Shown: positions 4,320-43,947 of the stretch, piece after piece
Numbering within the stretch: the stretch's first letter is position 1
Layout: each line of letters starts with the position of its first letter
Sequence record: NC_073315.1
DNA from: Escherichia phage vB_EcoS_fFiEco03
Reading direction: 5' to 3' (one strand)
Length of the DNA: 43,947 nucleotides
Notes under the pieces: model-generated
Databases searched by the model: none
What the model was told of the DNA's origin: nothing
The model's input: the letters and a program-made list of their open reading frames with translations, nothing else
Translations under genes and position numbers: made by a program

Positions 4320-4323
4320 TAAA

Positions 4324-4353
4324 AGGCCCCGTTAAGGGGCCTTAGTTTTATTT
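4324..4353. terminator. Bidirectional intrinsic terminator at convergent gene ends
   Basis: AGGCCCC-GTTAA-GGGGCCT stem-loop followed by TAGTTTTATTT; lies between the + gene ending 4319 and the - gene ending 4348. Confidence 0.6.
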
Positions 4354-12819: not shown

Positions 12820-12845
12820 AAGGCCCCTTTCGGGGCCTTTTTCTT
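12820..12845. terminator. Bidirectional intrinsic terminator (28-nt sequence repeated at 24735..24762)
   Basis: AAGGCCCC-TTTC-GGGGCCTT with U-rich flanks on both strands; convergent junction. Confidence 0.7.
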
Positions 12846-24736: not shown

Positions 24737-24740
24737 AACT

Positions 24741-24766
24741 AAGGCCCCTTTCGGGGCCTTTTCTCT
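24741..24766. terminator. Bidirectional intrinsic terminator (identical copy of the 12820 hairpin)
   Basis: AAGGCCCC-TTTC-GGGGCCTT followed by TTCTCT; junction of the convergent tailspike and replication operons. Confidence 0.7.
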
Positions 24767-24902
24767 ATTCTTCTGATACCTTCTCCAGTATAAACGCCAG
24801 TTGCGCGTTAGCGGCATCTCTCTGTTGCCGTAGTCTTAGCACTTCCTCTTCAAGTTCCTTGATACGTTTTTGCAATGCCGGAATCGGGGCTATGATGTTC
24901 AT
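24765..24902 (-). CDS. Micro-ORF: 45-aa coiled-coil peptide
   Basis: Hand-translated (MNIIAPIPALQKRIKELEEEVLRLRQQRDAANAQLAFILEKVSEE); its ATG overlaps the upstream stop (ATGA); last gene of the - operon. Confidence 0.35.
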   Translation of the reverse strand: MNIIAPIPALQKRIKELEEEVLRLRQQRDAANAQLAFILEKVSEE

Positions 24903-25084
24903 TTCTTACCTTCGCTTTTCTTGAAACTGCGCTTTATGTCCGGCAGCGTGTAGCAGCGTGACTTTTCGTATTTACCGTCCGAGCTTACCAAGACAAAGCT
25001 GTTGCCGTCTTTTGATATGTACTCGATGGTGAAAGTATTGAATGAATGTACGCTGTATATTTCATCGCCAACATTAAGTTTCAT
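24899..25084 (-). CDS. Hypothetical protein, 61 aa
   Basis: ATGA-coupled to the helicase gene stop. Confidence 0.45.
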   Translation of the reverse strand: MKLNVGDEIYSVHSFNTFTIEYISKDGNSFVLVSSDGKYEKSRCYTLPDIKRSFKKSEGKK

Positions 25085-26505
25085 TTCTTACCTCGTCTCT
25101 TCATGTAATTAAGCAACTCTTCCTGGACCGATTTCTTCTCGTCTGTACGCGCGGCAACAACCTCATCCAGCGTGTCTTTAGCGACGATGTGGTACAGGAA
25201 CACCGGGCGCTCGTGGCCCGCCTGTTTCTGGCGGACTGGGCCTATGCGCTCAACAACCTGCAAATAGTGCTCAAGGTTCCAGCCTTGCGAGATGAACGCC
25301 AGATGATGACCCCCGTCCTGTAAATTCAAACCATGCCCGGCTGACGCAGGATGCACGCATAAAATCTCGATTTCCCCACGGTTCCACGCTTCCATCTGCT
25401 TGTTCCCCTTAGCGCCTTTGGCGAACGCCTGTGCCTGTGGGAATCGCTTAAGGATACGCTCCAGTTCGTGTTTAAACTGATAGGCTACCAGTAACGGTGC
25501 ACCCTGTAGCTCCTCAACAATGGACTCAAGCGCATCAAGTTTCGTGTCGTGCACTTTCTCCCAGTCTTTGGTTGCTTCTCCGTCCGGTCCCGATACATAC
25601 ACGGCACCAGATGCAATCTGCAAACACTTCGACGTCTTCGCCGCGGCGTTAGCAGCTTCAACTTCTCCGCTCTCCAGTTCCGCGAATAACTTCTCCTCCA
25701 TATCGATGTACGCCTGACGTGCTTTCTTCGGCAGGTCAATTTCAACCGGAACAATAATCGGCGCTTCACACCCGAACCACTCAGCGGCGTCAATCGTGAG
25801 ACTAATGTCCTTCATCTTCTGGTGAATCTCATTATCCGCCCCCGGGCGCGCATGATACTCTCGCGCCATCGCCGACTTACCTTTCTGGACAGAGTTAAAC
25901 CATCGGTCGGTGAATGCCGTGTATGAAGAACCGAGGCGCTCACCCGCGTCGATAAACCAGTTCTGGCCCCACAAGTCTTTTAGGCCGTTTGGTGACGGTG
26001 TGCCTGTAAGGTTAATGAAACGCTTAACCTTTCCGAACGCCACTTTGCTAAGCGCCTTTGCCCGCTTGCTACCACCTGAACGGCTGCGGAATGATTTTAG
26101 TTTCGTGCTTTCATCGGCGACAATAACCGTAAAAGGCCAGTCGTCTTTGCCGTAGTAGTCAATCAGCCACTCGATAACTTCGTAGTTGGTGCATACCACG
26201 TTAGCGTCCGACTCCAGCGCCGCGATGCGGCGCCTCTCGCTACCGGTCGCATCGACGACACTCAGACAAGGGAAACCCCACTTAGTTTGTTCTGCGGGCC
26301 ACGTACCGGATGCAACACGTAACGGGGCGAGGATTAACACGCGGTCCTCTTCCGTAAGCTGCCCGTTGCGGAACAGGCGGTTTAGAACCCACATTGTCGA
26401 CGAGGTCTTGCCGCCGCCCATACCGCACCAGATATTGCAACGTGGGTGCTGTAGCATAAACGACGTCATTATTTTCTGATATTCCCTGCGCCTAAACTTA
26501 CTCAT
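25081..26505 (-). CDS. Superfamily 2 (SNF2/DEAD-like) helicase
   Basis: Walker A GMGGGKTS, DExx-like VADESTK, and a helicase C-terminal-like region; 474 aa. Confidence 0.75.
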   Translation of the reverse strand: MSKFRRREYQKIMTSFMLQHPRCNIWCGMGGGKTSSTMWVLNRLFRNGQLTEEDRVLILAPLRVASGTWPAEQTKWGFPCLSVVDATGSERRRIAALESDANVVCTNYEVIEWLIDYYGKDDWPFTVIVADESTKLKSFRSRSGGSKRAKALSKVAFGKVKRFINLTGTPSPNGLKDLWGQNWFIDAGERLGSSYTAFTDRWFNSVQKGKSAMAREYHARPGADNEIHQKMKDISLTIDAAEWFGCEAPIIVPVEIDLPKKARQAYIDMEEKLFAELESGEVEAANAAAKTSKCLQIASGAVYVSGPDGEATKDWEKVHDTKLDALESIVEELQGAPLLVAYQFKHELERILKRFPQAQAFAKGAKGNKQMEAWNRGEIEILCVHPASAGHGLNLQDGGHHLAFISQGWNLEHYLQVVERIGPVRQKQAGHERPVFLYHIVAKDTLDEVVAARTDEKKSVQEELLNYMKRRGKK

Positions 26506-26999
26506 GCCTTGAACTCCCCGAAGTATATTTCCGCGGCTCTTTGGTATACGCGCGACGCTTCTTCTATAGTATCAAAATAGCCAAGGTGGATGTATTTGTT
26601 ATTGACGCCTATTCTGGCGCGCCACCTGCCAGAGGGTATTTGGTAAACCCCTATCGCGCCGCTAGTGTTATGTGATGAGCAGTCTCGGTTCTGAATCTGC
26701 TGGCTCCTGGTTGCTGGCCTTATATTATTTATGGCGTTATTAGCCCTGTTACGGTCTTTATGGTCAAGCTCACCATTATGATATTCTCCGTAGACGAAAG
26801 CCCATGCCAGATGGTGGGCTTTTATTCTTACACCGGAGACTGTAATAACTATGTATCCTTTGTCGTTTGGCCCTCCGGCTACCTCCCCCGCATTTCTCCC
26901 TTTTATGCTTACTTTTCGTGTAAATATACCGGTTTCGGGGTCATAGTTAAGAAGACGTTTCGCCTCCTCAATATCAGGCCTTCTTGTTAATTTGTTCAT
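26502..26999 (-). CDS. HNH homing endonuclease with C-terminal AP2 domain
   Basis: HNH_3-like GYIVITVSGVRIKAHHLAWAFVYGEYHNGELDHKDRNRANNAINNIR followed by AP2-like GAIGVYQIPSGRWRARIGVNNKYIHLGYFDTIEEASRVY; AT-richer than flanks. Confidence 0.8.
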   Translation of the reverse strand: MNKLTRRPDIEEAKRLLNYDPETGIFTRKVSIKGRNAGEVAGGPNDKGYIVITVSGVRIKAHHLAWAFVYGEYHNGELDHKDRNRANNAINNIRPATRSQQIQNRDCSSHNTSGAIGVYQIPSGRWRARIGVNNKYIHLGYFDTIEEASRVYQRAAEIYFGEFKA

Positions 27000-27187
27000 T
27001 TCAGCACCAGAACTAACTCTTTACGCCCGAACGCCGTAACGTTACCGGTTACGTCTTCGATAACCAGTTTACCGTTCGACTCGACGAACACCGTATCAAC
27101 GGCAACAGGGCGACGGGTCTTAACGTTGAAAATCATGTCGCCCGGTACGATGTCACGTGCTGGTTTGCGGTCATATTCGTGTTTCAT
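26996..27187 (-). CDS. Hypothetical protein, 63 aa
   Basis: AAGGA RBS; first gene downstream of the 27221 promoter. Confidence 0.5.
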   Translation of the reverse strand: MKHEYDRKPARDIVPGDMIFNVKTRRPVAVDTVFVESNGKLVIEDVTGNVTAFGRKELVLVLK

Positions 27188-27217
27188 TTCTCAATTCCTT
27201 ATATTGTTGGTGTAGGG

Positions 27218-27502
27218 CTAACTATAATAGTTCGCTATTAGGTCGTCAACCTGTTTGAACGACCCGACGACAAAAACATTCGCGCCGCGTTTGCGCATAC
27301 GCTCATGCTCACGTAACTGGTGTGGGTCTGGCTTCGTGTTTTCGTCTTTCTTAACCTCGACGAACCAGACGATACCGTTGGGGAGAATTACCAGCAGGTC
27401 GGGGGCGCCGGAACGCCCCTCGTAGGAAAGTTTACGAACGAGGCCGCCGATAGCCTCGAATCGCTCTTTTGCGTATTTCTGGATGCGCCCCTCTTTAGTC
27501 AT
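27218..27502 (-). CDS. VRR-NUC domain nuclease (putative)
   Basis: 94 aa from ATG 27502 (ATGA-coupled); pattern G.PDLLVILPNGIVWFVEVKK...Q consistent with a VRR-NUC PD-(D/E)xK core (recalled). Confidence 0.55.
   Translation of the reverse strand: MTKEGRIQKYAKERFEAIGGLVRKLSYEGRSGAPDLLVILPNGIVWFVEVKKDENTKPDPHQLREHERMRKRGANVFVVGSFKQVDDLIANYYS
27221..27249 (-). promoter_or_regulatory. Sigma70-like promoter, class II (TTGACG-N17-TATAGT), embedded in the 3' end of the VRR-NUC gene
   Basis: On the - strand: TTGACG, spacer ACCTAATAGCGAACTAT, TATAGT. Same design as the promoters at 30954 and 33569. Confidence 0.55.
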
Positions 27503-27651
27503 GAGCGCAGAACCCAAGTTATAAACGCCCCGCCTAAAATGGCAACACCAACAAACTTAAAGAACAGGCCATAACAGAACATCGCGGCTATTCCTGCGCC
27601 GAGTAGCAGTGCGAGCATGGTTACTATCGTCCAAAATACAAACATTGTCAT
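27499..27651 (-). CDS. Micro-ORF: 50-aa two-TM membrane peptide
   Basis: Hand-translated MTMFVFWTIVTMLALLLGAGIAAMFCYGLFFKFVGVAILGGAFITWVLRS; ATGA overlaps at both ends. Confidence 0.4.
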   Translation of the reverse strand: MTMFVFWTIVTMLALLLGAGIAAMFCYGLFFKFVGVAILGGAFITWVLRS

Positions 27652-27737
27652 AATACGCACCCCTCACGTTTCGTATGCTCAATCCCGCAGCGCGGACAGA
27701 TTCGGCAGTCTTCTTCGTAGAACCAGTAAATTTTCAT
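27648..27737 (-). CDS. Micro-ORF: 29-aa Cys-rich (zinc-ribbon-like) peptide
   Basis: MKIYWFYEEDCRICPRCGIEHTKREGCVL; ATGA overlaps at both ends. Confidence 0.3.
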   Translation of the reverse strand: MKIYWFYEEDCRICPRCGIEHTKREGCVL

Positions 27738-27865
27738 TCCAGCACCCACAGATAAATTGCGATGAACATACCCAGTACGGCGGTCATCATGTCGTATTGA
27801 CCCTCGTGGTAGTAGACACCGGCTGCGAATCCCGCCAGTACTGCAATAATCAGTTTACTTGGCAT
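27734..27865 (-). CDS. Micro-ORF: 43-aa membrane peptide
   Basis: MPSKLIIAVLAGFAAGVYYHEGQYDMMTAVLGMFIAIYLWVLE; strong CAGGAG RBS; start overlaps the 3' end of the DNA polymerase gene. Confidence 0.4.
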   Translation of the reverse strand: MPSKLIIAVLAGFAAGVYYHEGQYDMMTAVLGMFIAIYLWVLE

Positions 27866-30056
27866 AACGTTTTAACTCCTGACCTTCCGCTACAAGAGGG
27901 AACCCCTCCGCCCACTCTGGCAACGCACACATTAATTTTTCCAGTTCAGCCACCGTGTAATCCGGCGTATCTGGAGTTTCACATACCAGTTCATCGTGTA
28001 CCGAAAGCACGATGGGATACCCGCCACCCTCAACATTAATCATCGCATATGCGAGTAAATCACGGCACAGCGCCTGAACAATGTTTTCGCAGGCTTTGCC
28101 GCCGTGTGTGTACAGGGTAGTCCATTGGCGGGTTAACTGGTTTTCACCTTGGTACTTGATTCGCACATTCGTGTTTACCCGTCCGTCTTCGTCTGTTTCT
28201 TTTGTCACGCTAACGCCGATTCCTGGATACGAGAGGATACGGCCCGACGGCAACTCCATACACAACCACCAACCGGGAACCTTCCTACCGGATGAATCGG
28301 TTTCTACTGTTCTCCAGATTCGGATAGCGCGCTCGCCATTCTTGCGCAGATGCGCCCCCGCCCAAAATTCACGACCCGGATTTCTTACAGCGGCTAAAAT
28401 ACCGTCTTTGAGGTCGCGCCAGAACGCTACTGTTTCCGGGTGTGACTCGCGCCACATACGCTTGATTGCGTCGCAGGTGCGCCACACTTTCTTGTCCAGA
28501 ATATACGATGGTCGGTCATCCTTCTCACCTGGATGCGGGGGGCGCTTGGCTTCCTGGATGCGCGCCCATTCATATCCTCTCGCGGTGGCCGACCAGATGT
28601 GGTCCGGGAATGTACCGTCCATTGTTTTAGCCATCTCAATAAGGTCGAGGCCTAAGTTTTTGGCGAACGTAACGAATGCTCCGACGCCTCCCTCGTAGCC
28701 GAGGCCCAGTTCGCATGCTTTGCCTATCTGTCTGATTTCCTTAAAGTTTTTCTTAATATCGTCGGGGTCCATGCCAAACATCTTACCTGCAGTTACGCAA
28801 TAAATATCCAACCCGGCGCGGAAAGTATCAAGCGCGGTTTCTTCGCCTGCCAACCACGCAAGCCCACGACCCTCAACGTTAGAGTAATCGGCAACAACAA
28901 ACTTATGCCCCACTTCCGGTATGATGCAGCTACGTACCGTCGATGCCGTTAGCTTGGCTACATCAAAACGGCGGTGTGCCCGGCCTTTAAGTAACGCTGA
29001 AATGCCTTTATCCAGTTCATCATCGTGATAGTACCCGCGCGCCAGGTTCTGTGGTTGGAAGCCTTTACCCGCCCACCGCAAAGTGCGTTTTGCCCCACCG
29101 TACTGTAAACAACCCCGGCGGCGGTCGTCCGATGAGCGGCCCAACAGCAGTGGGTTATATTTCGTTGACGCGGTGGACGCGGCCCCGAGGCGCATTTCGA
29201 TAATTGTGCGTGCGTCGTCCGGTAAATCATCGTCCGCCAGCAGGTCGTTAAGCGTCGACTTCTGTGCGTTGTGTATGCGGTGTGCAGGGGCGAGTTCACG
29301 AAGAATCGGCAGAAAGTCCTTACCAGTAAGCGAGCCGCCGTATTTGCGTTGGGCTTCCTCCTGTAACTGCGCTTTGTGTTTCTCCACGGCTTCAATAGCG
29401 GCTTCCGCCAGTGCAACGTCAACCTTAAACCCGCGGTCGTTGATTAACTGGTCCAGTTCCAGTACACGGTCCTCGAACTCGGAGTTACCCCAACGCGGCA
29501 GCTTATGGAAGACTTCACGCATCGCAGTGATGTCGCTCACGGCGTACTTGATGAACAGCGCCCACTCATCAGGGTGTGTTTCGGCGGTGTAGCGTCTGAT
29601 TTTGTAGTTCTTCGGCGTCGGCTTAGAGAAACGCTGAATCAGCGCCTTGCCGCGTTTATCTTTTGCATTGTCAGCAGACACGCCAAGCACTTCACACAGC
29701 GCATCAAGTGAACCCGGCAGCGCGTGACGAAACGCCCAAATCATCGTATCAATGGTGTTGCTTACCGGAATATCAAAGTCCCAACAGTGCTTCATGATGA
29801 GCCTGTCGAACATTGATCCGTTGTGCCATACCATCTTAATGCGACTGTTTGGCTTAACCAGGCGGCGTAACGCACGATGCAAATCACCCGGCATGTCGCT
29901 GCCGTCGGTGCAATCCCATACCCGCACAGGCTCGTCGTCAAAAGCATATGTGCAGATAAGCACTTCGGTAGTCGGGTGTTCGGCGTAAGCGTAGGAGCCG
30001 ACTTTCTTTAAATCTGCTTCGGAGAATGTTTCAAAGTCCAGGTATAAGTAGCTCAT
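27855..30056 (-). CDS. DNA polymerase, family A (with 3'-5' exonuclease domain)
   Basis: Exo motifs YLYLDFETFS and HNGSMFD, polymerase motif SVHDELV; start placed at ATG 30056 (AAGGA RBS, ATGA-coupled to the upstream micro-ORF) rather than the ORF-track 30110. Confidence 0.85.
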   Translation of the reverse strand: MSYLYLDFETFSEADLKKVGSYAYAEHPTTEVLICTYAFDDEPVRVWDCTDGSDMPGDLHRALRRLVKPNSRIKMVWHNGSMFDRLIMKHCWDFDIPVSNTIDTMIWAFRHALPGSLDALCEVLGVSADNAKDKRGKALIQRFSKPTPKNYKIRRYTAETHPDEWALFIKYAVSDITAMREVFHKLPRWGNSEFEDRVLELDQLINDRGFKVDVALAEAAIEAVEKHKAQLQEEAQRKYGGSLTGKDFLPILRELAPAHRIHNAQKSTLNDLLADDDLPDDARTIIEMRLGAASTASTKYNPLLLGRSSDDRRRGCLQYGGAKRTLRWAGKGFQPQNLARGYYHDDELDKGISALLKGRAHRRFDVAKLTASTVRSCIIPEVGHKFVVADYSNVEGRGLAWLAGEETALDTFRAGLDIYCVTAGKMFGMDPDDIKKNFKEIRQIGKACELGLGYEGGVGAFVTFAKNLGLDLIEMAKTMDGTFPDHIWSATARGYEWARIQEAKRPPHPGEKDDRPSYILDKKVWRTCDAIKRMWRESHPETVAFWRDLKDGILAAVRNPGREFWAGAHLRKNGERAIRIWRTVETDSSGRKVPGWWLCMELPSGRILSYPGIGVSVTKETDEDGRVNTNVRIKYQGENQLTRQWTTLYTHGGKACENIVQALCRDLLAYAMINVEGGGYPIVLSVHDELVCETPDTPDYTVAELEKLMCALPEWAEGFPLVAEGQELKRYAK

Positions 30057-30208
30057 TTCTTTTTCCTTAAATCCAGTGCCTTCGTTTCGCTGAGTCTTAT
30101 TTTCATACAATCACGGCAAATCCACACATGCCTGTACCCGGCGCGGTACTCATCCGCGTACCACGGAAGCGGTTTCATATATCGGTATACGTGCTTACAG
30201 AAAAACAT
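30053..30208 (-). CDS. Micro-ORF: 51-aa Cys/His-containing (zinc-ribbon-like) protein coupled to the polymerase start
   Basis: MFFCKHVYRYMKPLPWYADEYRAGYRHVWICRDCMKIRLSETKALDLRKKK; its stop overlaps the polymerase ATG. Confidence 0.4.
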   Translation of the reverse strand: MFFCKHVYRYMKPLPWYADEYRAGYRHVWICRDCMKIRLSETKALDLRKKK

Positions 30209-30221
30209 TATTTTCGACCCT

Positions 30222-30247
30222 TAGTAAAAAGGCCCAATGAAGGGCCT
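30222..30247 (-). terminator. Intrinsic terminator after the SSB-like gene (- strand)
   Basis: AGGCCC-TTCATT-GGGCCT followed by TTTTT when read on the - strand. Confidence 0.55.
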
Positions 30248-30267
30248 CAGTTAAATTGATTCAGATA

Positions 30268-30900
30268 TTAACGGCGACGACGTTCGCGGCGAGGTGCTTC
30301 ATCTTTTTCATCGTCATCGTCTTCCAGGTCATTGACGCTTGCGGCGACTTTAGAACCACCAAACGCTTTACCTTCGCCAACATATTTAATTGCCAGCAGG
30401 TTAACGCCTAGAACTTTATATTTCTGGCTGAACCAGATTTCAACGCTTACATTAGCTACGCAGCCACTGTAAACCTGTTCACCTTCAATCTGTTCGCCGT
30501 CTACGTTGAAGTCCTGCTCCACCTGAGTCTCACCTTTTTTAGAGGTTACAATCAGCGGCTGCTTCTGCGCCTTCGCTTTGAAGTAGAAGCCTTCTGGGAA
30601 GTCTTCAAACGGGTTATCACGCTCAGCAATGTCTTTAATCGCGCATTTATCCATGTGCTTACCTTCGCCGTAGTTGGACTTCATCCACTTCTCGGCAGCG
30701 GCTGCGCCTAACGCTTCTTCAACTACAGCGTAGACAGTGTCGTAGAGCGCGTCGATTTGCGCGTGGTCAGACGGCAGGATTATAGTCGCGCTGTACTGGC
30801 CTTTAGTGATGGAGCCATCATCGTTTTCACGGTCTTTTTCGCGTTCGAATACGTTAACCCATGCAGTGTTTACTTTACGCAGATTCAGTTTAATACCCAT
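30268..30900 (-). CDS. Putative ssDNA-binding protein (DUF2815-like)
   Basis: 210 aa, acidic Asp/Glu-rich C-terminal tail; position between the Cas4-like nuclease and the polymerase, as in modules where DUF2815 pairs with DUF2800 (recalled). Confidence 0.5.
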   Translation of the reverse strand: MGIKLNLRKVNTAWVNVFEREKDRENDDGSITKGQYSATIILPSDHAQIDALYDTVYAVVEEALGAAAAEKWMKSNYGEGKHMDKCAIKDIAERDNPFEDFPEGFYFKAKAQKQPLIVTSKKGETQVEQDFNVDGEQIEGEQVYSGCVANVSVEIWFSQKYKVLGVNLLAIKYVGEGKAFGGSKVAASVNDLEDDDDEKDEAPRRERRRR

Positions 30901-30953
30901 CGTGATTTCTCGCTTTTCAGTTTACTCCGGGAACTGCCCGGCCAGTGATTAGA

Positions 30954-30982
30954 ACTATAATAGCTAACTATTCAGGTGTCAA
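30954..30982 (-). promoter_or_regulatory. Sigma70-like promoter, class II (TTGACA-N17-TATAGT)
   Basis: On the - strand: TTGACA, spacer CCTGAATAGTTAGCTAT, TATAGT; upstream of the SSB-like gene. Confidence 0.6.
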
Positions 30983-30986
30983 CACT

Positions 30987-32261
30987 TTATTCTAAATCTT
31001 CTTCACTAACACGACTCCACTCAGGCCGTTTGTCGCCCGCCGTTGTGATGCATGGGGCACCTGGTTTACGTGTGATGAAGTCTTTCAGTTCTTCTTCCGG
31101 CACAACTTTAACCGCTTCGGTCGGCGTCATGAGCACTTCTTTAGTCAGCTTGTCGCCGTAGAGTTCTGTTACTTTCTCCGCGTCTTTCCACGCACGATTG
31201 CCCATCTTACCTTCAACCAGCTTGTACCCAGGAACTTTCTTACCGGAATGCAACGCGGCAGCCATAGCTTTCTCAACCTTGTCGATGTGCTGGCGCAACA
31301 ACGGCAACTTCTCGTACTCAGCTACGAGTTCCTCCGGCGTAAGTTCCAGCGCAAAGTCGTCCTCCAGTTCTTCCGCCAGTACATCGTTAACGGTTTTTGT
31401 ACGCGCGGCGCATTGTTCAGAGAACCGACACCACTGACAACCATCGACCGACGGCTTAAAGTCAGACGCTTTCAGGTTCTTCTTGCCGCGGGAATAGGCA
31501 TCGAGCGCTAACAGTGCTCGTTTTTGTGCAAACTTAGCGAACAGTTCAAGGCCTTCAACCGAGATGTCCCACTCCGACGCACCGCCCGCGTACGGCTGGA
31601 AGATAACCAGACGGACCACGGTGATGTTATAACGTCTCTTGAGTCTGCGATAAACACCGAGAGCGTAAAGCATAAGCTGCTTGTTTTCTTTCGCTTCGAC
31701 ACGATGCCGACCCGTTTTAAGGTCGCCAATAATGAGCATGTACTCGTCGGTGTTAGCCAGTTCCTGAACGGCAACAAGGTCAGCCGTTCCGAACGTCTCT
31801 AAATCATCTTCCTCGCCTTCTTCACCTTCAACGGGTACTTTGTACCCGGGGTGTAGAATCTGCGTAAGATTGATACGCATTTCCAGCTTGGCGTAAGTCG
31901 CTACATCAATAATCGCTTTGCAGTAGTCGGTATACTTTTGCACCTGCTCAATCATGTCCGCCGTAATCAGTACCGCGCCTTTCATCGGGCTGATTAGCGC
32001 CTTAATCTGGCCTTTACCCTCATCCAGCACGTAAGCACCGACTTCACGCTCTAGCGGCAACGCAGTTCCGCGGATATAGGCGTTGAGATGGACCTCAGCT
32101 ATTGTGTGCATAGCTGTGCCTAATACAGCAGCTTTACCGGACGTGTTAGGGATATCTTTTTCACAGGCAAGTGATGCGGCGCAACTTAGCCACTTTTTAG
32201 CGCCTGACGGCGACAGTAATGCGTGAACATCGTTATTGCCGCCGCGTTCCTTTAAAATCAT
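30987..32261 (-). CDS. PD-(D/E)xK exonuclease, Cas4/RecB-like (DUF2800-like) with Cys cluster
   Basis: Start at ATG 32261 (ATGA-coupled); C-terminal CQWCRFSEQC plus N-terminal Cys; IIGDLKTGR and QLMLYALG motifs. Confidence 0.65.
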   Translation of the reverse strand: MILKERGGNNDVHALLSPSGAKKWLSCAASLACEKDIPNTSGKAAVLGTAMHTIAEVHLNAYIRGTALPLEREVGAYVLDEGKGQIKALISPMKGAVLITADMIEQVQKYTDYCKAIIDVATYAKLEMRINLTQILHPGYKVPVEGEEGEEDDLETFGTADLVAVQELANTDEYMLIIGDLKTGRHRVEAKENKQLMLYALGVYRRLKRRYNITVVRLVIFQPYAGGASEWDISVEGLELFAKFAQKRALLALDAYSRGKKNLKASDFKPSVDGCQWCRFSEQCAARTKTVNDVLAEELEDDFALELTPEELVAEYEKLPLLRQHIDKVEKAMAAALHSGKKVPGYKLVEGKMGNRAWKDAEKVTELYGDKLTKEVLMTPTEAVKVVPEEELKDFITRKPGAPCITTAGDKRPEWSRVSEEDLE

Positions 32262-32530
32262 ACTCTGTTCTCCCACTGGTCAATTAAATGTCGTGTCTTA
32301 TGGTCGCAGTGCATAGCCCACCCATACATCGACTCGAAGACATAAAAGTCAGGTTTGGCGAAAGTCGTGCGCTTAATCTGCGACACGTGGCGGCCTATAT
32401 CTTTAGGCCGGGGTGCTTTGCCTAAGTACGCCATCTCTTCCATCTGGTGCGCACCGGACGGCGCACGCAACAGCCATAGCGACTCTGTGTTGTCTCGCCT
32501 GTCTACGGCGCGGTAGAGTTGGTAAATCAT
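32258..32530 (-). CDS. Hypothetical protein, 90 aa
   Basis: Tightly coupled ORF in the replication operon. Confidence 0.5.
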   Translation of the reverse strand: MIYQLYRAVDRRDNTESLWLLRAPSGAHQMEEMAYLGKAPRPKDIGRHVSQIKRTTFAKPDFYVFESMYGWAMHCDHKTRHLIDQWENRV

Positions 32531-32829
32531 TTATCCACCTCATGCATTCTCAAGAAGACAATCATAGCGGCGCGTAGAGGGTTTTCGTGCGTACTTTTGG
32601 TGAACGAGGCGGAGTGATACGCTCTATATGTGAACGTATGCCGGTTAACCGTAACGCATTCAATTGATATGTGATTATCAATTATTATAGGCCATGCGTC
32701 CTCCACCCGATTACAATAATCGACTCCTCCGGAAGCTAATTCCATCTGATGCCCCCGCGAAACATTTCCGTATAGCGCGCGGCTGACACGTGCATTGATT
32801 TCTATGTCTGTTAAATTTCCGTAGTTCAT
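32527..32829 (-). CDS. Hypothetical protein, 100 aa
   Basis: ORF with ATGA coupling to the downstream gene. Confidence 0.5.
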   Translation of the reverse strand: MNYGNLTDIEINARVSRALYGNVSRGHQMELASGGVDYCNRVEDAWPIIIDNHISIECVTVNRHTFTYRAYHSASFTKSTHENPLRAAMIVFLRMHEVDK

Positions 32830-32872
32830 AATTCCGACCCTCAGTTAAAGCGGCCCGAAGGCCGCGGGATAG

Positions 32873-33361
32873 TTATTCTTCTTCGAAATACTTGTTCTTG
32901 ATTGCCGTCAGGCGTTCCAGATACTCCGCCAGGTCTTCGTCTTTAATCGCGGCAATCTTCATCTTCTTACCGGTGAACTCTTCCAGCAGTTCATCGGAAT
33001 CATCGCACGCGGCTTCGCTCGGGCCTTCATTAATTGCATCGTCGATGGCCTGAATCTGGTCACGCAGAGACTTGTAATCGACTTCTTCTTTCTCTTCTTC
33101 CGGTTCTGGCGTAGGCTCCTCTACTTTAGGTTTACGCGGCTTGCGCTTCGGCTTCTCTTCTTCTGCTGGTTTAGTGTCAACGGTGTCTTCACCTTCTACC
33201 GGGATTTCTTTCGTTACTTCTTTCGCAACAACATCACGAACACTATCTGCGATGTTTGCATCTGCCTTAAGTTCATACACAGGTTGTTTCACGCTGTTCG
33301 CTGCAATCAGTTCATGCGCAACTACGAAACGTTCCAGTAATTTTAAGAATTGGTCTAACAT
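32873..33361 (-). CDS. Hypothetical acidic protein, 162 aa
   Basis: AGGAG RBS; Glu/Lys/Pro-rich low-complexity central region. Confidence 0.5.
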   Translation of the reverse strand: MLDQFLKLLERFVVAHELIAANSVKQPVYELKADANIADSVRDVVAKEVTKEIPVEGEDTVDTKPAEEEKPKRKPRKPKVEEPTPEPEEEKEEVDYKSLRDQIQAIDDAINEGPSEAACDDSDELLEEFTGKKMKIAAIKDEDLAEYLERLTAIKNKYFEEE

Positions 33362-33376
33362 TATTTGTTCTCCTGT

Positions 33377-33538
33377 TTATTTTGACTCTTGAATCATTGC
33401 TTGCCAGATAAAACAAACGGCGTCTGACAGTTGCTCTTCATCGACTTCATCCTCGAGGCCTGGTATTACGTCGAGCAGTTGGTCTATACCCGCTTTTAGC
33501 ATCTCTTCTGTCGGTATTACGTCTACGCTGAACTTCAT
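33377..33538 (-). CDS. Micro-ORF: 53-aa acidic protein
   Basis: Hand-translated MKFSVDVIPTEEMLKAGIDQLLDVIPGLEDEVDEEQLSDAVCFIWQAMIQESK; GGAGAG RBS; first gene after the 33569 promoter. Confidence 0.4.
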   Translation of the reverse strand: MKFSVDVIPTEEMLKAGIDQLLDVIPGLEDEVDEEQLSDAVCFIWQAMIQESK

Positions 33539-33568
33539 TTTATCTCTCCTCTCGTTTGGTATGGGCTA

Positions 33569-33597
33569 ACTATAATAGCGAACTATTCACATGTCAA
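33569..33597 (-). promoter_or_regulatory. Sigma70-like promoter, class II (TTGACA-N17-TATAGT), divergent from the Cro-like gene
   Basis: On the - strand: TTGACA, spacer TGTGAATAGTTCGCTAT, TATAGT. Confidence 0.6.
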
Positions 33598-33621
33598 TGG
33601 GCTTTTCTAAAATAATTAATA

Positions 33622-33630
33622 TGGTACTAT
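33622..33630 (+). promoter_or_regulatory. Extended -10 promoter (TGgTACTAT) for the Cro-like gene
   Basis: TG-N-TACTAT with a poor -35; overlaps the second ACTATTCACAT(A/G)TCAA repeat. Confidence 0.45.
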
Positions 33631-33661
33631 TCACATATCAACTGACTAAGGAGTAATTGAC

Positions 33662-33877
33662 ATGCAACCATCTGAACTAGGTATCCGTGTAGAGCAACGC
33701 CGCAAAGAACTCGGCATCTCCCAGCGCCGTCTGGCTGTCCTGGCGGGCGTTTCCCAGGGCGCGATTAACCAGCTGGCACTTGGGGCAACTCAGGACGTCC
33801 GCCCGGCGACGCTGTTTAAACTGGCGGAAGTGCTGCAAGTAGACGCTAAGTGGCTGGCGTTCGGTGAAGGGGCTTAA
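33662..33877 (+). CDS. XRE-family HTH transcriptional regulator (Cro/CI-type)
   Basis: 71 aa; HTH ISQRRLAVLAGVSQGAINQLALG; AAGGAG RBS; monocistronic between its promoter and a terminator. Confidence 0.8.
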   Translation: MQPSELGIRVEQRRKELGISQRRLAVLAGVSQGAINQLALGATQDVRPATLFKLAEVLQVDAKWLAFGEGA

Positions 33878-33893
33878 CGCCCCTTTCTTTTTA
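33867..33893 (+). terminator. Intrinsic terminator after the Cro-like gene
   Basis: GGGGC-TTAAC-GCCCC followed by TTTCTTTTT; the stop codon lies in the loop. Confidence 0.65.
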
Positions 33894-33894
33894 C

Positions 33895-36162
33895 CTATTC
33901 CAAATCTTCCTCCGTCACCACCAGCATCTCATTAGGTTCGTATATTGTCTTCGGAATCTTGTTATCCGTTATCCTGGTGTTCAGCCTGTAACGGCCGGGT
34001 ATTATCTGATTGTTTTCGTCAGTACCCGGAACAAGATACCCGGCCTCAACCATTTTCTTAATCTTCCCGCGTTCTATGGCTTCTTTGGAGTTAAACGCCT
34101 TCGCGTTGGGGTCGGACTGCGCTAGCTTATTTGCCGCTGCTACCGTGATGCCCTCGTTGCCGTTGTAGGTTCCTTCTGCCAGTTCGAACGCGGCCAGTAT
34201 CGTGGCTTCCGAACTGTTGACGGCGCTCTCTACGGTTTTACGTACATTTTCTTTACCTTCCTTTGTCAGCCCTTCTTCCCGCTCTTTCTCCTCGTCAGTT
34301 TTGAACGGCTCGAAACCCCACGGCATTAACACAAGCGCTTTGTGCGGCTCCGGCAGGTCCAGGTTTACGATTGTGCCGTATTCCTCTGTGTTACCCAGGA
34401 ACTCAACCGCACGGTATTCTTTCGGCGGCGGCGCTTCACGGAACTGTACAGACTCCAGCACCATACCAACCGTCTTCTGTTGAGGTCCGTGCTTAAATTT
34501 AGAGTGGTATACATTTATCTGACGGTCGGTTGCGCGTTCAATTGTCAGTTCCACATCGACGCCTGCGTACAGCGCGCCACTGCCACGGGCTTTCTTTCCA
34601 CCCTTCGGGGTATGGTGGACGACGCCTACCGCGGCTTTAGTTGTGTCGCGTACTTCTTTCATGATTGCGATAACTTTACCCATACCGATTGCCGTTGATG
34701 AACTGTTCTCGTCGAACTTATCGATCGTCAGGGCCAGCGTCTGGTTGAGGGTGTCAAACGCAACCATGCCAATAGGTTCATCCCCCGCAGTTTCACGCAT
34801 CAACTTAATCAGGTTTTTCAGTTTGCCGACTTCACCCATGTCGATGACATGTACATAATCTTTACCTTCTTCGCCGTATTTAGCCGCGAGTGCATCGATA
34901 CGTGTACGTGTAGCCGCACCACCTTCACCATCAATATAGAAGTGATGGCAACGCTGGGTATCCGCCCCGGCAAACCGGTATCTGGAGGCACTCAGGTACA
35001 TCATACCCAGTGTATAGAACGATTTATACGTGCCGGATTCCCCGACAATATCCCAGATGCAATCCGACGGCATGTACCCTTCAACGACGAAATCAGCCTT
35101 TACCGGTTCCGGTAGCTCATCCTCTTCTGAGTCCTCGTCGTCTTCCAGGTCGTCCAGGCTGCATGAAACTGATTCACGCGCACCCCAACCGATGGCCTCT
35201 GCGACTTCACTAAATGGCAGCCCGGTCGCGTCGCACGCATACTTCCACACCTCTTTTGGCGACATGCCTTCGGTTGCCGTAATGTCGGTGTCGTGAATCA
35301 TGGTTACGTTCGGCGCTTCGTACCCTTCACGCGGGAAGCACAGCAGGAAGTCATCCGGACGCGGCGTCGGGTCGCTGTAGTTTTCTGCGTGTTCTGGCGT
35401 AGCTGGCATTTTCAGGCCGCGCGGTGTCATGATACCGCCGTACTCGAATGCCAGTGCTTCAAACGCATCAGTAAACGCGGTGCGCAGTTCTTCCGGTATC
35501 TGGTAATCCGATGCGCTGCTCACCTCATAATCCGGGATGCCTTCCAGCAGACGGTCAGGGTCAATAAGGTCATTGCGGCGTGACCAGACGACCTCTGAGT
35601 TAACCGGCGGCAGGTACATAGGCTGGGACAGAGTGAACCCGCTGTGGTCGGCGCCCATGCCTTTGAAGAAGTGCTCCAGCAATCCATGACGGACGCGGAT
35701 GATGTCACCACCTTCAACCGGACGAGCCAGCGGCATGACGACACGAAAGCGCGGCGACTCATCAATATGTGACGCCGTGGTATAGAGGCACATGGCTTTA
35801 CGGCTGCGCTTAACCCGGCGCACCGCTTCCTGGTACTCTTCCGGCGTTGCGCTGTCGAAGTCCAGATACGCCAGCGACGATTTGCTTACAGACGCGTCAC
35901 AGCGATAAAAGAAGCCTTTACGGGCCTGCTTAAAGTCACCTGTTTCCGGGTCTTTTACGGTGCTGTGTATAGAATCGCACGCGGCAGTGATATAACCTGG
36001 CGCGGTCTTAGGGTTAATCCCGTCACGAACAGCATCAAGCGGCTGAATTAACTCTTTCAGGTCATCCAGTGTTGCCGTATGTGTGGTTCTGACGTTTATA
36101 TCCTTTTTCTCCGCCCGCGCGTTGCGACGAGACCACGAGTAGGATAAAATTACATCGGACAT
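33895..36162 (-). CDS. Primase-helicase (N-terminal primase-like region plus C-terminal RecA-like ATPase)
   Basis: 755 aa; Walker A GESGTYKS in the C-terminal half; AAGGA RBS. Confidence 0.7.
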   Translation of the reverse strand: MSDVILSYSWSRRNARAEKKDINVRTTHTATLDDLKELIQPLDAVRDGINPKTAPGYITAACDSIHSTVKDPETGDFKQARKGFFYRCDASVSKSSLAYLDFDSATPEEYQEAVRRVKRSRKAMCLYTTASHIDESPRFRVVMPLARPVEGGDIIRVRHGLLEHFFKGMGADHSGFTLSQPMYLPPVNSEVVWSRRNDLIDPDRLLEGIPDYEVSSASDYQIPEELRTAFTDAFEALAFEYGGIMTPRGLKMPATPEHAENYSDPTPRPDDFLLCFPREGYEAPNVTMIHDTDITATEGMSPKEVWKYACDATGLPFSEVAEAIGWGARESVSCSLDDLEDDEDSEEDELPEPVKADFVVEGYMPSDCIWDIVGESGTYKSFYTLGMMYLSASRYRFAGADTQRCHHFYIDGEGGAATRTRIDALAAKYGEEGKDYVHVIDMGEVGKLKNLIKLMRETAGDEPIGMVAFDTLNQTLALTIDKFDENSSSTAIGMGKVIAIMKEVRDTTKAAVGVVHHTPKGGKKARGSGALYAGVDVELTIERATDRQINVYHSKFKHGPQQKTVGMVLESVQFREAPPPKEYRAVEFLGNTEEYGTIVNLDLPEPHKALVLMPWGFEPFKTDEEKEREEGLTKEGKENVRKTVESAVNSSEATILAAFELAEGTYNGNEGITVAAANKLAQSDPNAKAFNSKEAIERGKIKKMVEAGYLVPGTDENNQIIPGRYRLNTRITDNKIPKTIYEPNEMLVVTEEDLE

Positions 36163-40999: not shown

Positions 41000-41465
41000 T
41001 GGCTTGCATTTCACCGCCGCGTTCGAGGGATTCCGCGGAACTGCGTATCGTGCTACGCCGAACGAGAAGTACCTGACGATAGGCTACGGCCATTACGGGC
41101 CGGATGTAACCCCAGGTAAGACCATCACACCGGGGCAAGGCCTCCTGCTACTTAATCGTGATATGGCTAAGGCCGTAGCTGCGGTTGACGCCGCAGCGCA
41201 CCATTCGCTTACACAGGCACAGTTCGACGCAGTATGCGACCTGGTGTACAACGCAGGTGCTGGCGTTATTGCGGCTACTACAGGAACCGGTAAGGCTCTG
41301 CGTTCTGGTGATATTGCGACGCTACGGGCTAAACTGGCGCTGTTTATCAACCAGAACGGCAAACCGCTACTCGGCTTGCGTCGCCGTACTGCGGGCCGTC
41401 TGGCCCTGTTCGACGGCAAACCGTGGCAGGAGGCAGAGGCTATCGGGCGCGCGGTGAAAGGTTGA
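40962..41465 (+). CDS. Endolysin (lysozyme, GH24-like)
   Basis: Start at ATG 40962; catalytic region FEGFRGTAYRATPNEKYLTIGYGH matches the phage lysozyme E...D/C...T(I)G(Y)GH pattern. Confidence 0.8.
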   Translation: MGDISVSRNISDNGLHFTAAFEGFRGTAYRATPNEKYLTIGYGHYGPDVTPGKTITPGQGLLLLNRDMAKAVAAVDAAAHHSLTQAQFDAVCDLVYNAGAGVIAATTGTGKALRSGDIATLRAKLALFINQNGKPLLGLRRRTAGRLALFDGKPWQEAEAIGRAVKG

Positions 41466-41529
41466 CACCTGAGACTAATCCGACGATACTTAAATCACCT
41501 CCTGTTCCATCCCTCTGCTCTCCAGTTTT

Positions 41530-41563
41530 ATCCCGGCCCTGACCCAGCCGGGATTTTTTTTTA
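41530..41563 (+). terminator. Strong intrinsic terminator after the endolysin gene
   Basis: ATCCCGGC-N9-GCCGGGAT followed by nine Ts. Confidence 0.8.
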
Positions 41564-41584: not shown

Positions 41585-41613
41585 TTGACTATTAACATCG
41601 ACCCTATTATATT
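41585..41613 (+). promoter_or_regulatory. Sigma70-like promoter (TTGACT-N17-TATATT)
   Basis: TTGACT, spacer ATTAACATCGACCCTAT, TATATT; conserved AACGAGAGGAG leader. Confidence 0.55.
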
Positions 41614-41645: not shown

Positions 41646-41834
41646 ATGGTGACTAAGATTAAGCATACCGATAATTGGGGCGATTTCCTGGAGATATATA
41701 AGTGCAGGGACGGGTCATTACTTATAACTTGTACCGACGGTGCTATCGACGAATCAGCTAATGTTAATATGAGCCTGGATGATTTTATTATCATTGTTGG
41801 GCAAGTGGCGGCTTTTTACGGAGATGATAAATGA
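41646..41834 (+). CDS. Hypothetical protein, 62 aa
   Basis: ORF with GAGGAG RBS. Confidence 0.5.
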   Translation: MVTKIKHTDNWGDFLEIYKCRDGSLLITCTDGAIDESANVNMSLDDFIIIVGQVAAFYGDDK

Positions 41835-43278: not shown

Positions 43279-43288
43279 CCCGCCAACA

Positions 43289-43312
43289 AGCCCTCTACGG
43301 AGGGCTTTTCTG
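43289..43312 (+). terminator. Intrinsic terminator
   Basis: AGCCCTC-TACG-GAGGGCT followed by TTTCTGT. Confidence 0.6.
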
Positions 43313-43340
43313 TACATCCCGCCCAATCCCCTTATATAAT
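43312..43340 (+). promoter_or_regulatory. Candidate late promoter (perfect -10 TATAAT, weak -35 GTACAT) upstream of terS
   Basis: TATAAT at 43335..43340 with a poor -35 at 17-nt spacing; predicted +1 lies at the start of an inverted-repeat leader. Confidence 0.4.
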
Positions 43341-43405
43341 CCCTTTAGACGCGTAGGGCGCGTCTGGTGCGCTCTGATGGTCAGACGCATATGCAAGGGG
43401 ATTAT

Positions 43406-43947
43406 ATGAAACTTACACTTAAGCAGCCATCGCCAGAGGTGGTGCAAGCTGCACATGAAGAGGCTGTTAGTGCCAACCGTCGCCGTAAACGACCGCGGGG
43501 TAAACAGAGCCTTTACCAGTCATCCCGTAATTCTGCGGCATTGTGGGACCCGGACTATTGCGACGAGTTAATCCGGTTCTTTGACCGCAACTCATGGGAA
43601 CTCGTACCTACGTCCAAGGGTGACGAACGCCCGCTGATTCAGGATAAACCCCCGTCACTGGCCCGCTTCGCCTTACACATCGGCGTAACTATCCCTATTA
43701 TTAAGCTGTGGTTGCGTGAGATTCCGGCGTTTGCAGAAGCCTATGAAACCGCTCAGGCGCTGGAAGAGGCGTATTTCACTGAGACAGGCGCTGCCGGTAT
43801 CTCCGCTACGTTTGCTGCGGCTAAGCTGGGCTTAAGCAAAGAGAAACCTGTTGAATCCTCCGAAGAAACTGCGCCGACTGAGATTGTGTTCACCGTAGCG
43901 GAGCCGGTAGGTAAAATCGTTACCACGAACATGGGTGAGGTAGGGGA
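43406..43947 (+). CDS. terS: Terminase small subunit (runs off the window end, no stop seen)
   Basis: Open frame from ATG 43406 (AAGGGGA RBS) to the end of the window; basic N-terminal region; sits immediately 5' of terL in the circularly permuted map. Confidence 0.6.
   Translation, partial: MKLTLKQPSPEVVQAAHEEAVSANRRRKRPRGKQSLYQSSRNSAALWDPDYCDELIRFFDRNSWELVPTSKGDERPLIQDKPPSLARFALHIGVTIPIIKLWLREIPAFAEAYETAQALEEAYFTETGAAGISATFAAAKLGLSKEKPVESSEETAPTEIVFTVAEPVGKIVTTNMGEVG

Follow-up and report, generated by a model that had tools for sequence, protein, structure and literature searches.

A predicted sigma70 promoter and a conserved two-hairpin RNA leader upstream of the small terminase gene in Kagunavirus and related phages

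Terminator, promoter and start codon upstream of terS

The stretch of DNA analysed (the window: the whole 43,947-nucleotide record NC_073315.1 of Escherichia phage vB_EcoS_fFiEco03) comes from a Kagunavirus (Guernseyvirinae); 948 bases around the locus match Kagunavirus phages at 87–98% identity. The record starts at the ATG of terL (window position 1) and ends 4 nt before the stop codon of terS, the small terminase gene, and the two genes overlap by 4 nt. The annotation of Phage Ivi is in agreement with the terS identity, and the product matched PHROG 3064 'terminase' (E = 2.5e-72) in an alignment running from residue 1, the Met at 43406. The plus strand from 1 to 24736 carries terL, portal, head and tail genes, and a further plus-strand unit at 38.8 to 43.3 kb carries holins, a lysozyme-family endolysin and many small ORFs. 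DNA polymerase A, a helicase-primase-like AAA_25 protein, an SNF2 helicase and a DUF2800 nuclease are encoded on the minus strand (25–37.8 kb). No phage RNA polymerase gene was found among the genome's genes, and the host enzyme should accordingly carry out all transcription; an N4-type DNA hairpin promoter was rejected on the same ground, the large minus-strand ORFs encoding other functions. Between the small-ORF unit and terS, the following features were placed.

43288–43311, plus strand: intrinsic terminator, AAGCCCTC-TACG-GAGGGCTT with the T-rich tail TTTTCTGT, read from the sequence; closes the upstream small-ORF unit
43311–43316, plus strand: -35 hexamer TGTACA (4/6), from the promoter scan; 18 nt upstream of the -10
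43335–43340, plus strand: -10 hexamer TATAAT, from the promoter scan
43347, plus strand: predicted transcription start, an A, the seventh base after the -10 and the first base of hairpin 1 (see below)
43395–43400, plus strand: Shine-Dalgarno sequence (SD) of terS, AAGGGG; unpaired in the predicted promoter-initiated transcript
43406–43947, plus strand: terS, from its translation; runs past the end of the record, its stop overlapping the terL ATG

The hairpin at 43288–43311 has a GC-rich stem with a U-tract directly after it, as expected of an intrinsic terminator, and was also predicted in the fold of 43280–43420; its T-rich tail overlaps the -35. It was missing from the plus-strand output of a simple terminator scan, and we suspect that the first two Ts were absorbed into the longest possible stem. 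The terminator stem covaries between lineages (CCCTC/GAGGG in Kagunavirus, CCCGC/GCGGG in Jerseyvirus, phiEap-2 and TS6, GCCCGCC/GGTGGGC in Dhillonvirus), and homology with many relatives starts exactly at the terminator, the sequence upstream of it being different. A terminator preceded the promoter in every lineage with upstream sequence read, so that the RNA 5' end would be defined by this promoter; judged by its sequence, the module is an insulated operon start.

The first-pass annotation had pointed to a perfect -10 right after a terminator and before terS. Its coordinates were confirmed, and the element is conserved in relatives. TGTACA-18 nt-TATAAT scored 10/12 in the promoter scan, which found 10 promoter-like matches against 2.6 expected; one match per ~3 kb is insignificant by itself. 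Among 36 distinct Kagunavirus sequences, however, both hexamers lacked any minor allele (0 per column in the -35 and in the -10), whereas the spacer had 1.33 per column and the discriminator 2.0 (hairpin 1, 0.11; hairpin 2, 0.56). A genuine sigma70 promoter should leave just such a footprint, with fixed hexamers between stretches that vary. TGTACA was also invariant in Jerseyvirus. Across the nine lineages described below, the -10 is TACAAT in Jerseyvirus and TATAAT in seven lineages besides Kagunavirus, and the promoter spacer has fully diverged in sequence with its length constant. Where TGTACA is replaced, TTGCCT at 17 nt (phiEap-2) or the extended -10 TGTTATAAT (Dhillonvirus) was found, so that the sites have a -10 near TATAAT (with A2 and T6) and either a -35 at 16–18 nt or an extended -10, as expected for sigma70. 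The -35 had been described as weak and typical of activator-dependent promoters. This description did not hold, as the hexamer matches at 4/6 and is invariant in Kagunavirus and Jerseyvirus, the other lineages have TTGCCT or an extended -10, and nothing points to an activator. Relatives support a predicted sigma70 promoter with a transcript that would start at the first hairpin.

Many GenBank records start terS at GTG 43367, which opens hairpin 2. We rejected this start. The upstream GTG frame is interrupted by a stop in TS6 and is out of register with terS in Dhillonvirus; a 1-nt indel changes it between the phiEap-2-like sequences L052 and L118, and all Kagunavirus–Jerseyvirus differences in the 13 upstream 'codons' are non-synonymous. 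ATG 43406, in contrast, has a conserved SD before it, and the PHROG terminase profile aligns from there. A conserved upstream ORF, begun at the AUG opening hairpin 2 or at the loop AUG, was likewise rejected, its length, frame and stop position being inconsistent between lineages. As far as sequence comparison can tell, terS starts at ATG 43406 (43406–43408) and not at an upstream GTG or ATG; the first-pass annotation had rightly ended the region at 43405. With this start, 43347–43405 becomes the 5' UTR.

The locus is thus probably the start of the packaging and morphogenesis operon, arranged as a compact terminator/promoter/leader module. The operon contains terminator-like hairpins on the plus strand in intergenic positions (2756, 4323, 5201, 7592 and 12820, and a final one at 24741), and the promoter scan listed no comparably strong plus-strand promoter after the internal ones. 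From its gene content, the promoter would be a late one. A search for transcript, start-site or end mapping in Kagunavirus, Jerseyvirus or Dhillonvirus found nothing usable in the literature.

A covarying two-hairpin leader at the predicted 5' end

Two hairpins, adjacent with one base between them, make up the first 44 nt of the predicted RNA.

43347–43365, plus strand: hairpin 1, AGACGCG(U)-AGG-(G)CGCGUCU; stem of 7–8 bp, conserved loop Y-AGG-G
43367–43390, plus strand: hairpin 2, GUGCG-C-UCUGA-UGG-UCAGA-CGCAU; 10 bp with a bulge, GA-UGG-UC invariant

The arms of hairpin 1, AGACGCG and CGCGTCT, occupy 43347–43353 and 43359–43365, and its start lies 5–8 nt after the -10 in every lineage. Among relatives the consensus of hairpin 2 is (A/G)UGCG-C-UCUGA-UGG-UCAGA-CGCAU, with a bulged base that may be C, T or A. 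Both loops are NGG triloops (C/U-AGG-G in hairpin 1, A-UGG-U in hairpin 2). Hairpin 2 is followed by an A-rich single-stranded spacer, the SD (4–10 nt from the end of hairpin 2 across lineages) and the terS AUG at 43406.

The leader had been read as three copies of AGACGC in direct and inverted orientation. The positions were correct (43347 and 43383 on the plus strand, 43360 on the minus strand), but the third copy is merely the 3' arm of the covarying hairpin at 43367–43390. The hexamer is common, with 36 copies in the whole window against 25.8 ± 5.8 expected, and the third copy is ATACGC in Jerseyvirus, with a compensating change in hairpin 2; the three boxes were therefore rejected as protein sites. 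A second overlapping arm, GCGTCTG...CAGACGC (43360–43366 and 43382–43388), had also been proposed. Its covariation score was 0.073 against 0.092 for shuffled alignments (496 of 500 shuffles at least as high), and the pairing, found mainly in Kagunavirus and broken outside it, was discarded. Folding of this phage's sequence from the predicted start gave a modest z of -1.93. The features of the locus alone are statistically unremarkable, hence the case rests on comparison with relatives.

Regions upstream of terS were collected by an IMG/VR protein search, by an IMG/VR motif scan (TATAAT-N12-17-AGGG-N16-19-GATGGTC) and from GenBank phages. The module was kept in 374 phage records of the Kagunavirus/Jerseyvirus type and in 153 of the Dhillonvirus type. 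All 40 distinct two-hairpin sequences from the motif scan lay directly upstream of a terS of this family, while ~50 other matches had no hairpins and were attributed to chance. Nine lineages carry the module: Kagunavirus, Jerseyvirus, phiEap-2-like phages, TS6/St162-like phages, Dhillonvirus, a Dhillon-like contig (L122), Eiauvirus eiAU, an unclassified contig (L155) and Serratia phage Smarc3. TerS identity between module-bearing lineages falls to 28–30%, the conserved part of the protein being a helix-turn-helix-like central region; the Kagunavirus and phiEap-2 leaders are ~80% identical although their TerS proteins are only ~30% identical. Citrobacter K1M and Klebsiella Mingus have a related TerS without the module, and Serratia phage Susuwatari, a distant relative, has a different leader, again with two hairpins and with YNGGGG loops. 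The first-pass annotation had named lack of conservation of the repeats as a reason to abandon its proposal; the module, with covarying stems, was instead present in several hundred enterobacterial siphovirus genomes.

In the covariation alignment of 46 distinct sequences, 98.5% of cells were paired and 12 of 18 pairs had changed on both sides; the alignment was anchored on invariant motifs and divergent rows were fitted to the structure by hand, which inflates the paired percentage. The two-hairpin structure scored 0.389, compared with 0.146 ± 0.009 after shuffling (0/500 shuffles as high), the covariation signal being drawn from about nine lineages. Sliding the pairing partners by 1–3 columns left only 15–57% paired. 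Helix 1 was paired in 99.4% of cells, with 5 of 7 pairs changed on both sides, and helices 2 and 3, which form hairpin 2, in 95.6% and 100%, with 7 of 11 pairs changed on both sides. RNAalifold run on a plain unguided MAFFT alignment recovered hairpin 1 and the top of hairpin 2 with 6 compensated pairs, and in 8 of 9 lineages both hairpins also came out of single-sequence minimum-energy folds, in which the SD was largely unpaired. In Jerseyvirus the UCUGA/UCAGA stem of hairpin 2 is replaced by UAUGA/UCAUA with pairing kept; in Dhillonvirus, eiAU, L155 and Smarc3 both stems are wholly different in sequence and the architecture is unchanged.

Wobble pairs were strongly asymmetric. There were 57 G·U cells and 4 A·C cells, so that the plus strand was 98.5% paired and the minus strand 91.8%; an excess of G·U this far above A·C indicates that the plus-strand RNA folds. 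Loops that stay constant while the arms vary and yet remain complementary are the opposite of what a palindromic protein-binding site would show. The RNA reading is also favoured by the position of hairpin 1, which is always 5–8 nt beyond the -10, the distance expected for a transcription start. Of the possibilities raised by the first-pass annotation, an RNA structure is thus favoured by the comparative data (covariation, G·U excess and unguided folds), a DNA operator is unlikely and a packaging signal is without support; its further proposal that the transcript opens with the AGACGCG-TAGGG-CGCGTCT hairpin agrees with the covariation of helix 1, the start being predicted. We conclude from the alignments that the leader is a conserved, covarying two-hairpin plus-strand RNA at the predicted 5' end. 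The R1 covariance model scored 68.2 bits at the site and 10.6 bits at the next best position in the genome, consistent with a single copy. The Rfam 15 covariance models gave no plus-strand match overlapping 43312–43405, even at E <= 10; the sole overlap was a minus-strand chance match to mir-1743 (12.5 bits, gathering score 100).

Proposed function of the leader and competing explanations

The reading we favour, at a probability of roughly 0.7, is a promoter with a cis-acting leader that would protect the 5' end and present the ribosome-binding site. With no polymerase gene found in the phage, the host sigma70 enzyme is proposed to use TGTACA-18-TATAAT and to transcribe from about A43347. The first 44 nt would fold into hairpins 1 and 2, followed by the A-rich spacer, SD and AUG, and the leader would act in cis as RNA. 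The 5'-terminal hairpin may shield the long operon mRNA from 5'-end-dependent decay (RppH, RNase E), and the two hairpins would lock up the leader such that the ribosome-binding site is kept open. Loops this constant point to an additional partner, one shared by different host genera, and may bind the ribosome, RNA polymerase or a protein. The start site, the late timing and the stabilising and RBS-presenting function are all proposals.

A close likeness to this arrangement is the E. coli ompA 5' UTR stabiliser, reportedly described by Emory, Bouvet and Belasco in 1992 as hp1-ss1-hp2-ss2 with the RBS. The phage leader resembles it in having a predicted hairpin at the 5' end (0–1 unpaired bases), a second hairpin and an A-rich single-stranded SD segment. 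The two differ in that there is no sequence relationship, the loops of the phage leader are invariant and its 5' end is predicted. A purely structural 5' stabiliser needs neither invariant loops nor a second hairpin, so that stabilisation explains only part of the conservation.

A less probable though more interesting version has the two-hairpin RNA bind RNA polymerase in cis, as put elements do through the beta' zinc-binding domain, and cause processive antitermination in the ~25-kb operon. HK022 putL starts at +3 of PL and has two stem-loops (PMC9378689). The leader likewise places two stem-loops, one base apart and from about +1, behind the predicted sigma70 promoter that opens a long operon; this operon holds internal terminator-like hairpins without a comparably strong plus-strand promoter after them, and the invariance of the loops across phages of five host genera (Escherichia, Salmonella, Enterobacter, Serratia and Edwardsiella) would fit a conserved partner such as RNA polymerase. 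However, HK022 put is ~70 nt with two long bulged stems and a triplex (PMC9378689), whereas the leader is ~44 nt with simple 7–10 bp stems and triloops. The R1 covariance model found no put similarity in the HK022 PL–PR region (positions 24000–34000; best 7.5 bits, E 0.78), and terminators within late operons are common in phages without an antitermination system. We regard it as rather improbable that the 44-nt leader represents a new class of cis-acting RNA that makes direct contact with a host machine from the 5' terminus of a late transcript, the put-like form being the most interesting one. A nut-like boxA/boxB arrangement was also considered. The leader shares with lambdoid nut a short GC-rich hairpin with a 5-nt loop, and Kagunavirus has a boxA-resembling CGCUCU, but element order and spacing differ, no N- or Q-like gene was identified and CGCUCU is not conserved outside Kagunavirus; this candidate was rejected.

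Equally improbable, all its variants taken together, is a translational operator in which a protein or sRNA would read the G-rich loops near the RBS and thereby control how much TerS is made, or when. Such a partner might come from the phage or from the host (CsrA), or the loops could serve as SD-like standby sites for 30S. This idea draws on the short distance from hairpin 2 to the SD (4–10 nt), on triloops held constant in sequence while the stems vary, on the ability of the hairpin 1 loop AGGG(G) to pair with the 16S anti-SD and on the Susuwatari leader, which differs and again has two hairpins with YNGGGG loops. CsrA sites are defined by GGA motifs in hairpin loops and in the SD. The loops AGG-G and UGG-U lack GGA, which occurs only in the SD of some lineages, making CsrA unlikely. 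A C/U-rich sRNA candidate at 41497–41561 contains CCAUCCCU, which is complementary to GAUGG and AGGG; conservation of its core is limited to Kagunavirus and Jerseyvirus, although phiEap-2 and Dhillonvirus have the same loops, and the sRNA was rejected as the loop partner. No candidate RNA-binding protein was identified.

Slightly less probable still is occlusion of the RBS by a longer-range helix. Two further segments form a 13-nt inverted repeat around the leader.

43334–43346, plus strand: 5' arm of the outer repeat, ATATAATCCCTTT; contains the -10 and discriminator, complementary to the SD/AUG region
43395–43407, plus strand: 3' arm of the outer repeat, AAGGGGATTATAT; contains the SD and ends on the second base of the terS start codon

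Neither this repeat nor the second hairpin (43367–43390) had been noticed in the first-pass annotation. A control of this kind reportedly operates in phage T4, in which McPheeters et al. in 1986 are said to have described late promoters within hairpins that control translation (genes e, soc, 49 and I-TevI). On the gene e pattern, the -10 and discriminator would form a 5' arm that buries the SD and AUG in read-through RNA and is absent from promoter-initiated RNA; read-through RNA would then be silent for terS and only promoter-initiated RNA would be translated. In this phage the prediction is strong: the outer duplex comprises 15 base pairs (-17.9 kcal/mol), and the fold of read-through RNA is a three-way junction (-54.1 kcal/mol, z -4.4, 0/200 shuffles as good) in which the SD and AUG are buried, both being free in the predicted promoter-initiated RNA. 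Partial -10/SD complementarity also occurs in Jerseyvirus, phiEap-2 and Dhillonvirus. Unlike the T4 gene e type, however, the helix here is not maintained by covariation. Across lineages it was 77.2% paired, compared with 76.0% after shuffling, with a covariation score no better than shuffled, and cognate arms were not significantly more stable than non-cognate ones (-8.1 and -7.4 kcal/mol, p = 0.26). Pairing was weak in the TS6 group (-5.7) and in L155 (-2.8), and the 5' arm drifts freely, being the most variable stretch within Kagunavirus without compensating changes in the SD. A C-rich discriminator facing a G-rich SD may be the source of much of the complementarity. We therefore rejected the outer helix as a feature of the family and keep it only as a lineage-specific possibility.

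The least likely reading, and a very improbable one, takes the sequence between promoter and terS as a signal in the DNA itself, be it a pac site, a TerS-binding site or an operator. SPP1 pacL and lambda cosB are TerS-binding DNA sites between the promoter region and terS. The leader resembles them in lying immediately upstream of terS in a headful-packaging phage; it is strictly tied to one TerS family, and the helix-turn-helix-like centre of TerS is conserved. Jerseyviruses have random, permuted ends; packaging in these phages is by headful, and the literature gives no mapped pac site (PMC9409062). Unlike in SPP1 and lambda, however, the evidence at this locus concerns a folded plus-strand RNA and not duplex DNA repeats: conserved loops with varying complementary arms, the 57-to-4 excess of G·U over A·C and the fixed spacing to the -10 all argue against a DNA site. 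Several Dhillonvirus records begin exactly at TATAAT, but the SSL-2009a deposit is circular and has orf1 at position 56; a record start at TATAAT or at the upstream ATG reflects how genomes are annotated and not a mapped end. The PhageTerm-predicted cos of one Dhillonvirus lies outside the leader, the EE09 sequence ATCTTAAGGG being absent from it, and a cos or pac at this site was set aside as unlikely.

Meaning for these phages

The module is real and widely conserved, and it is an uncurated example of a familiar arrangement, a promoter with a structured 5' leader, although it could, with low probability, be of a rarer kind. It defines the likely start of the packaging and head-tail operon in Kagunavirus, Jerseyvirus and Dhillonvirus, which are among the most frequently isolated siphoviruses of E. 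coli and Salmonella and include many therapy candidates, and it adds an RNA motif conserved in >500 deposited genomes that is not in Rfam. It also corrects a widespread annotation error, by which terS was begun 13–15 codons too early, within hairpin 2. As a 5' stabiliser and nothing more, the leader would be part of an ordinary though neatly conserved promoter–leader module. Action on RNA polymerase or the ribosome would instead make it a very small regulatory RNA that works without protein, and a useful part for phage engineering and expression control. Should the put-like reading be true, five internal terminators would be read through in E. coli and Salmonella without any phage protein, by an element conserved in Kagunavirus, Jerseyvirus, Dhillonvirus, Eiauvirus and related phages.

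Hairpins of the terS leader in relatives

The leader upstream of the small-terminase gene, terS, was followed into more distant phages. In Dhillonvirus EE09 (OR756193.1, 359-375), GCTGTCT replaces GCCGTCT in the 3' arm of leader hairpin 1. On the plus strand a G-C pair thereby becomes G·U, an additional strand-consistent wobble change. Serratia phage Susuwatari (ON287371.1, ~330-420), a distant relative of this TerS family, carries a different terS leader, in which a pair of short hairpins is again seen, both with G-rich loops: GCAGC-UCUGGGG-GCUGC and UCGC-UCAGGGG-GCGA. What matters functionally may be these G-rich loops.

Many deposited genomes start terS at a GTG or ATG within hairpin 2, or at another in-frame upstream ATG. 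Such too-early starts add 13–15 spurious codons (window 43367-43405 and deposited records), and several deposited genomes were cut to open at the too-early terS codon or at the TATAAT. The GenBank records concerned include PV841871.1, NC_069146.1 and NC_012223.2.

Promoters and terminators elsewhere in the genome

Further transcription signals were located on both strands:

33597-33569, 30982-30954 and 27249-27221, minus strand: near-consensus sigma70 promoters (TTGACA or TTGACG, 17 nt, TATAGT)
4323-4343, 12820-12839 and 24741-24760, both directions: near-identical trio of bidirectional terminator hairpins, AAGGCCCC-loop-GGGGCCTT
2756, 5201 and 7592, plus strand: other terminator-like hairpins in the structural operon

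The three minus-strand promoters precede replication genes, and their -35 elements are far nearer consensus than that of the terS promoter. Each hairpin of the near-identical trio lies 3' of a structural-operon gene block.

A candidate small RNA and the layout of the plus strand

Two sites of interest lie on the plus strand 3' of the endolysin gene:

41462-41561, plus strand: candidate phage sRNA locus (promoter-like site, ORF-free stretch, terminator)
41585-41613, plus strand: second promoter-like site, TTGACT-17 nt-TATATT

The first locus occupies the gap that follows the endolysin gene and has TTGACA-17 nt-GATACT as its promoter-like site. Next come ~65 nt free of ORFs, then a strong terminator, ATCCCGGC-CCTGACCCA-GCCGGGAT-T9. 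Its predicted transcript is C/U-rich and includes UCACCUCCU, similar to the 16S anti-SD sequence, as well as CCAUCCCUCU. The Rfam match was weak (Betaproteobacteria_toxic_sRNA, E 0.04). Kagunavirus and Jerseyvirus SE2 retain the promoter, the core and a covarying terminator stem; of these, phiEap-2 keeps just the terminator. We consider this locus a candidate phage sRNA. The second promoter-like site lies directly 3' of the sRNA-like terminator and 5' of the small-ORF block beginning at 41646, so between 38.8 and 43.9 kb the plus strand looks split into at least three units, each bounded by terminators.
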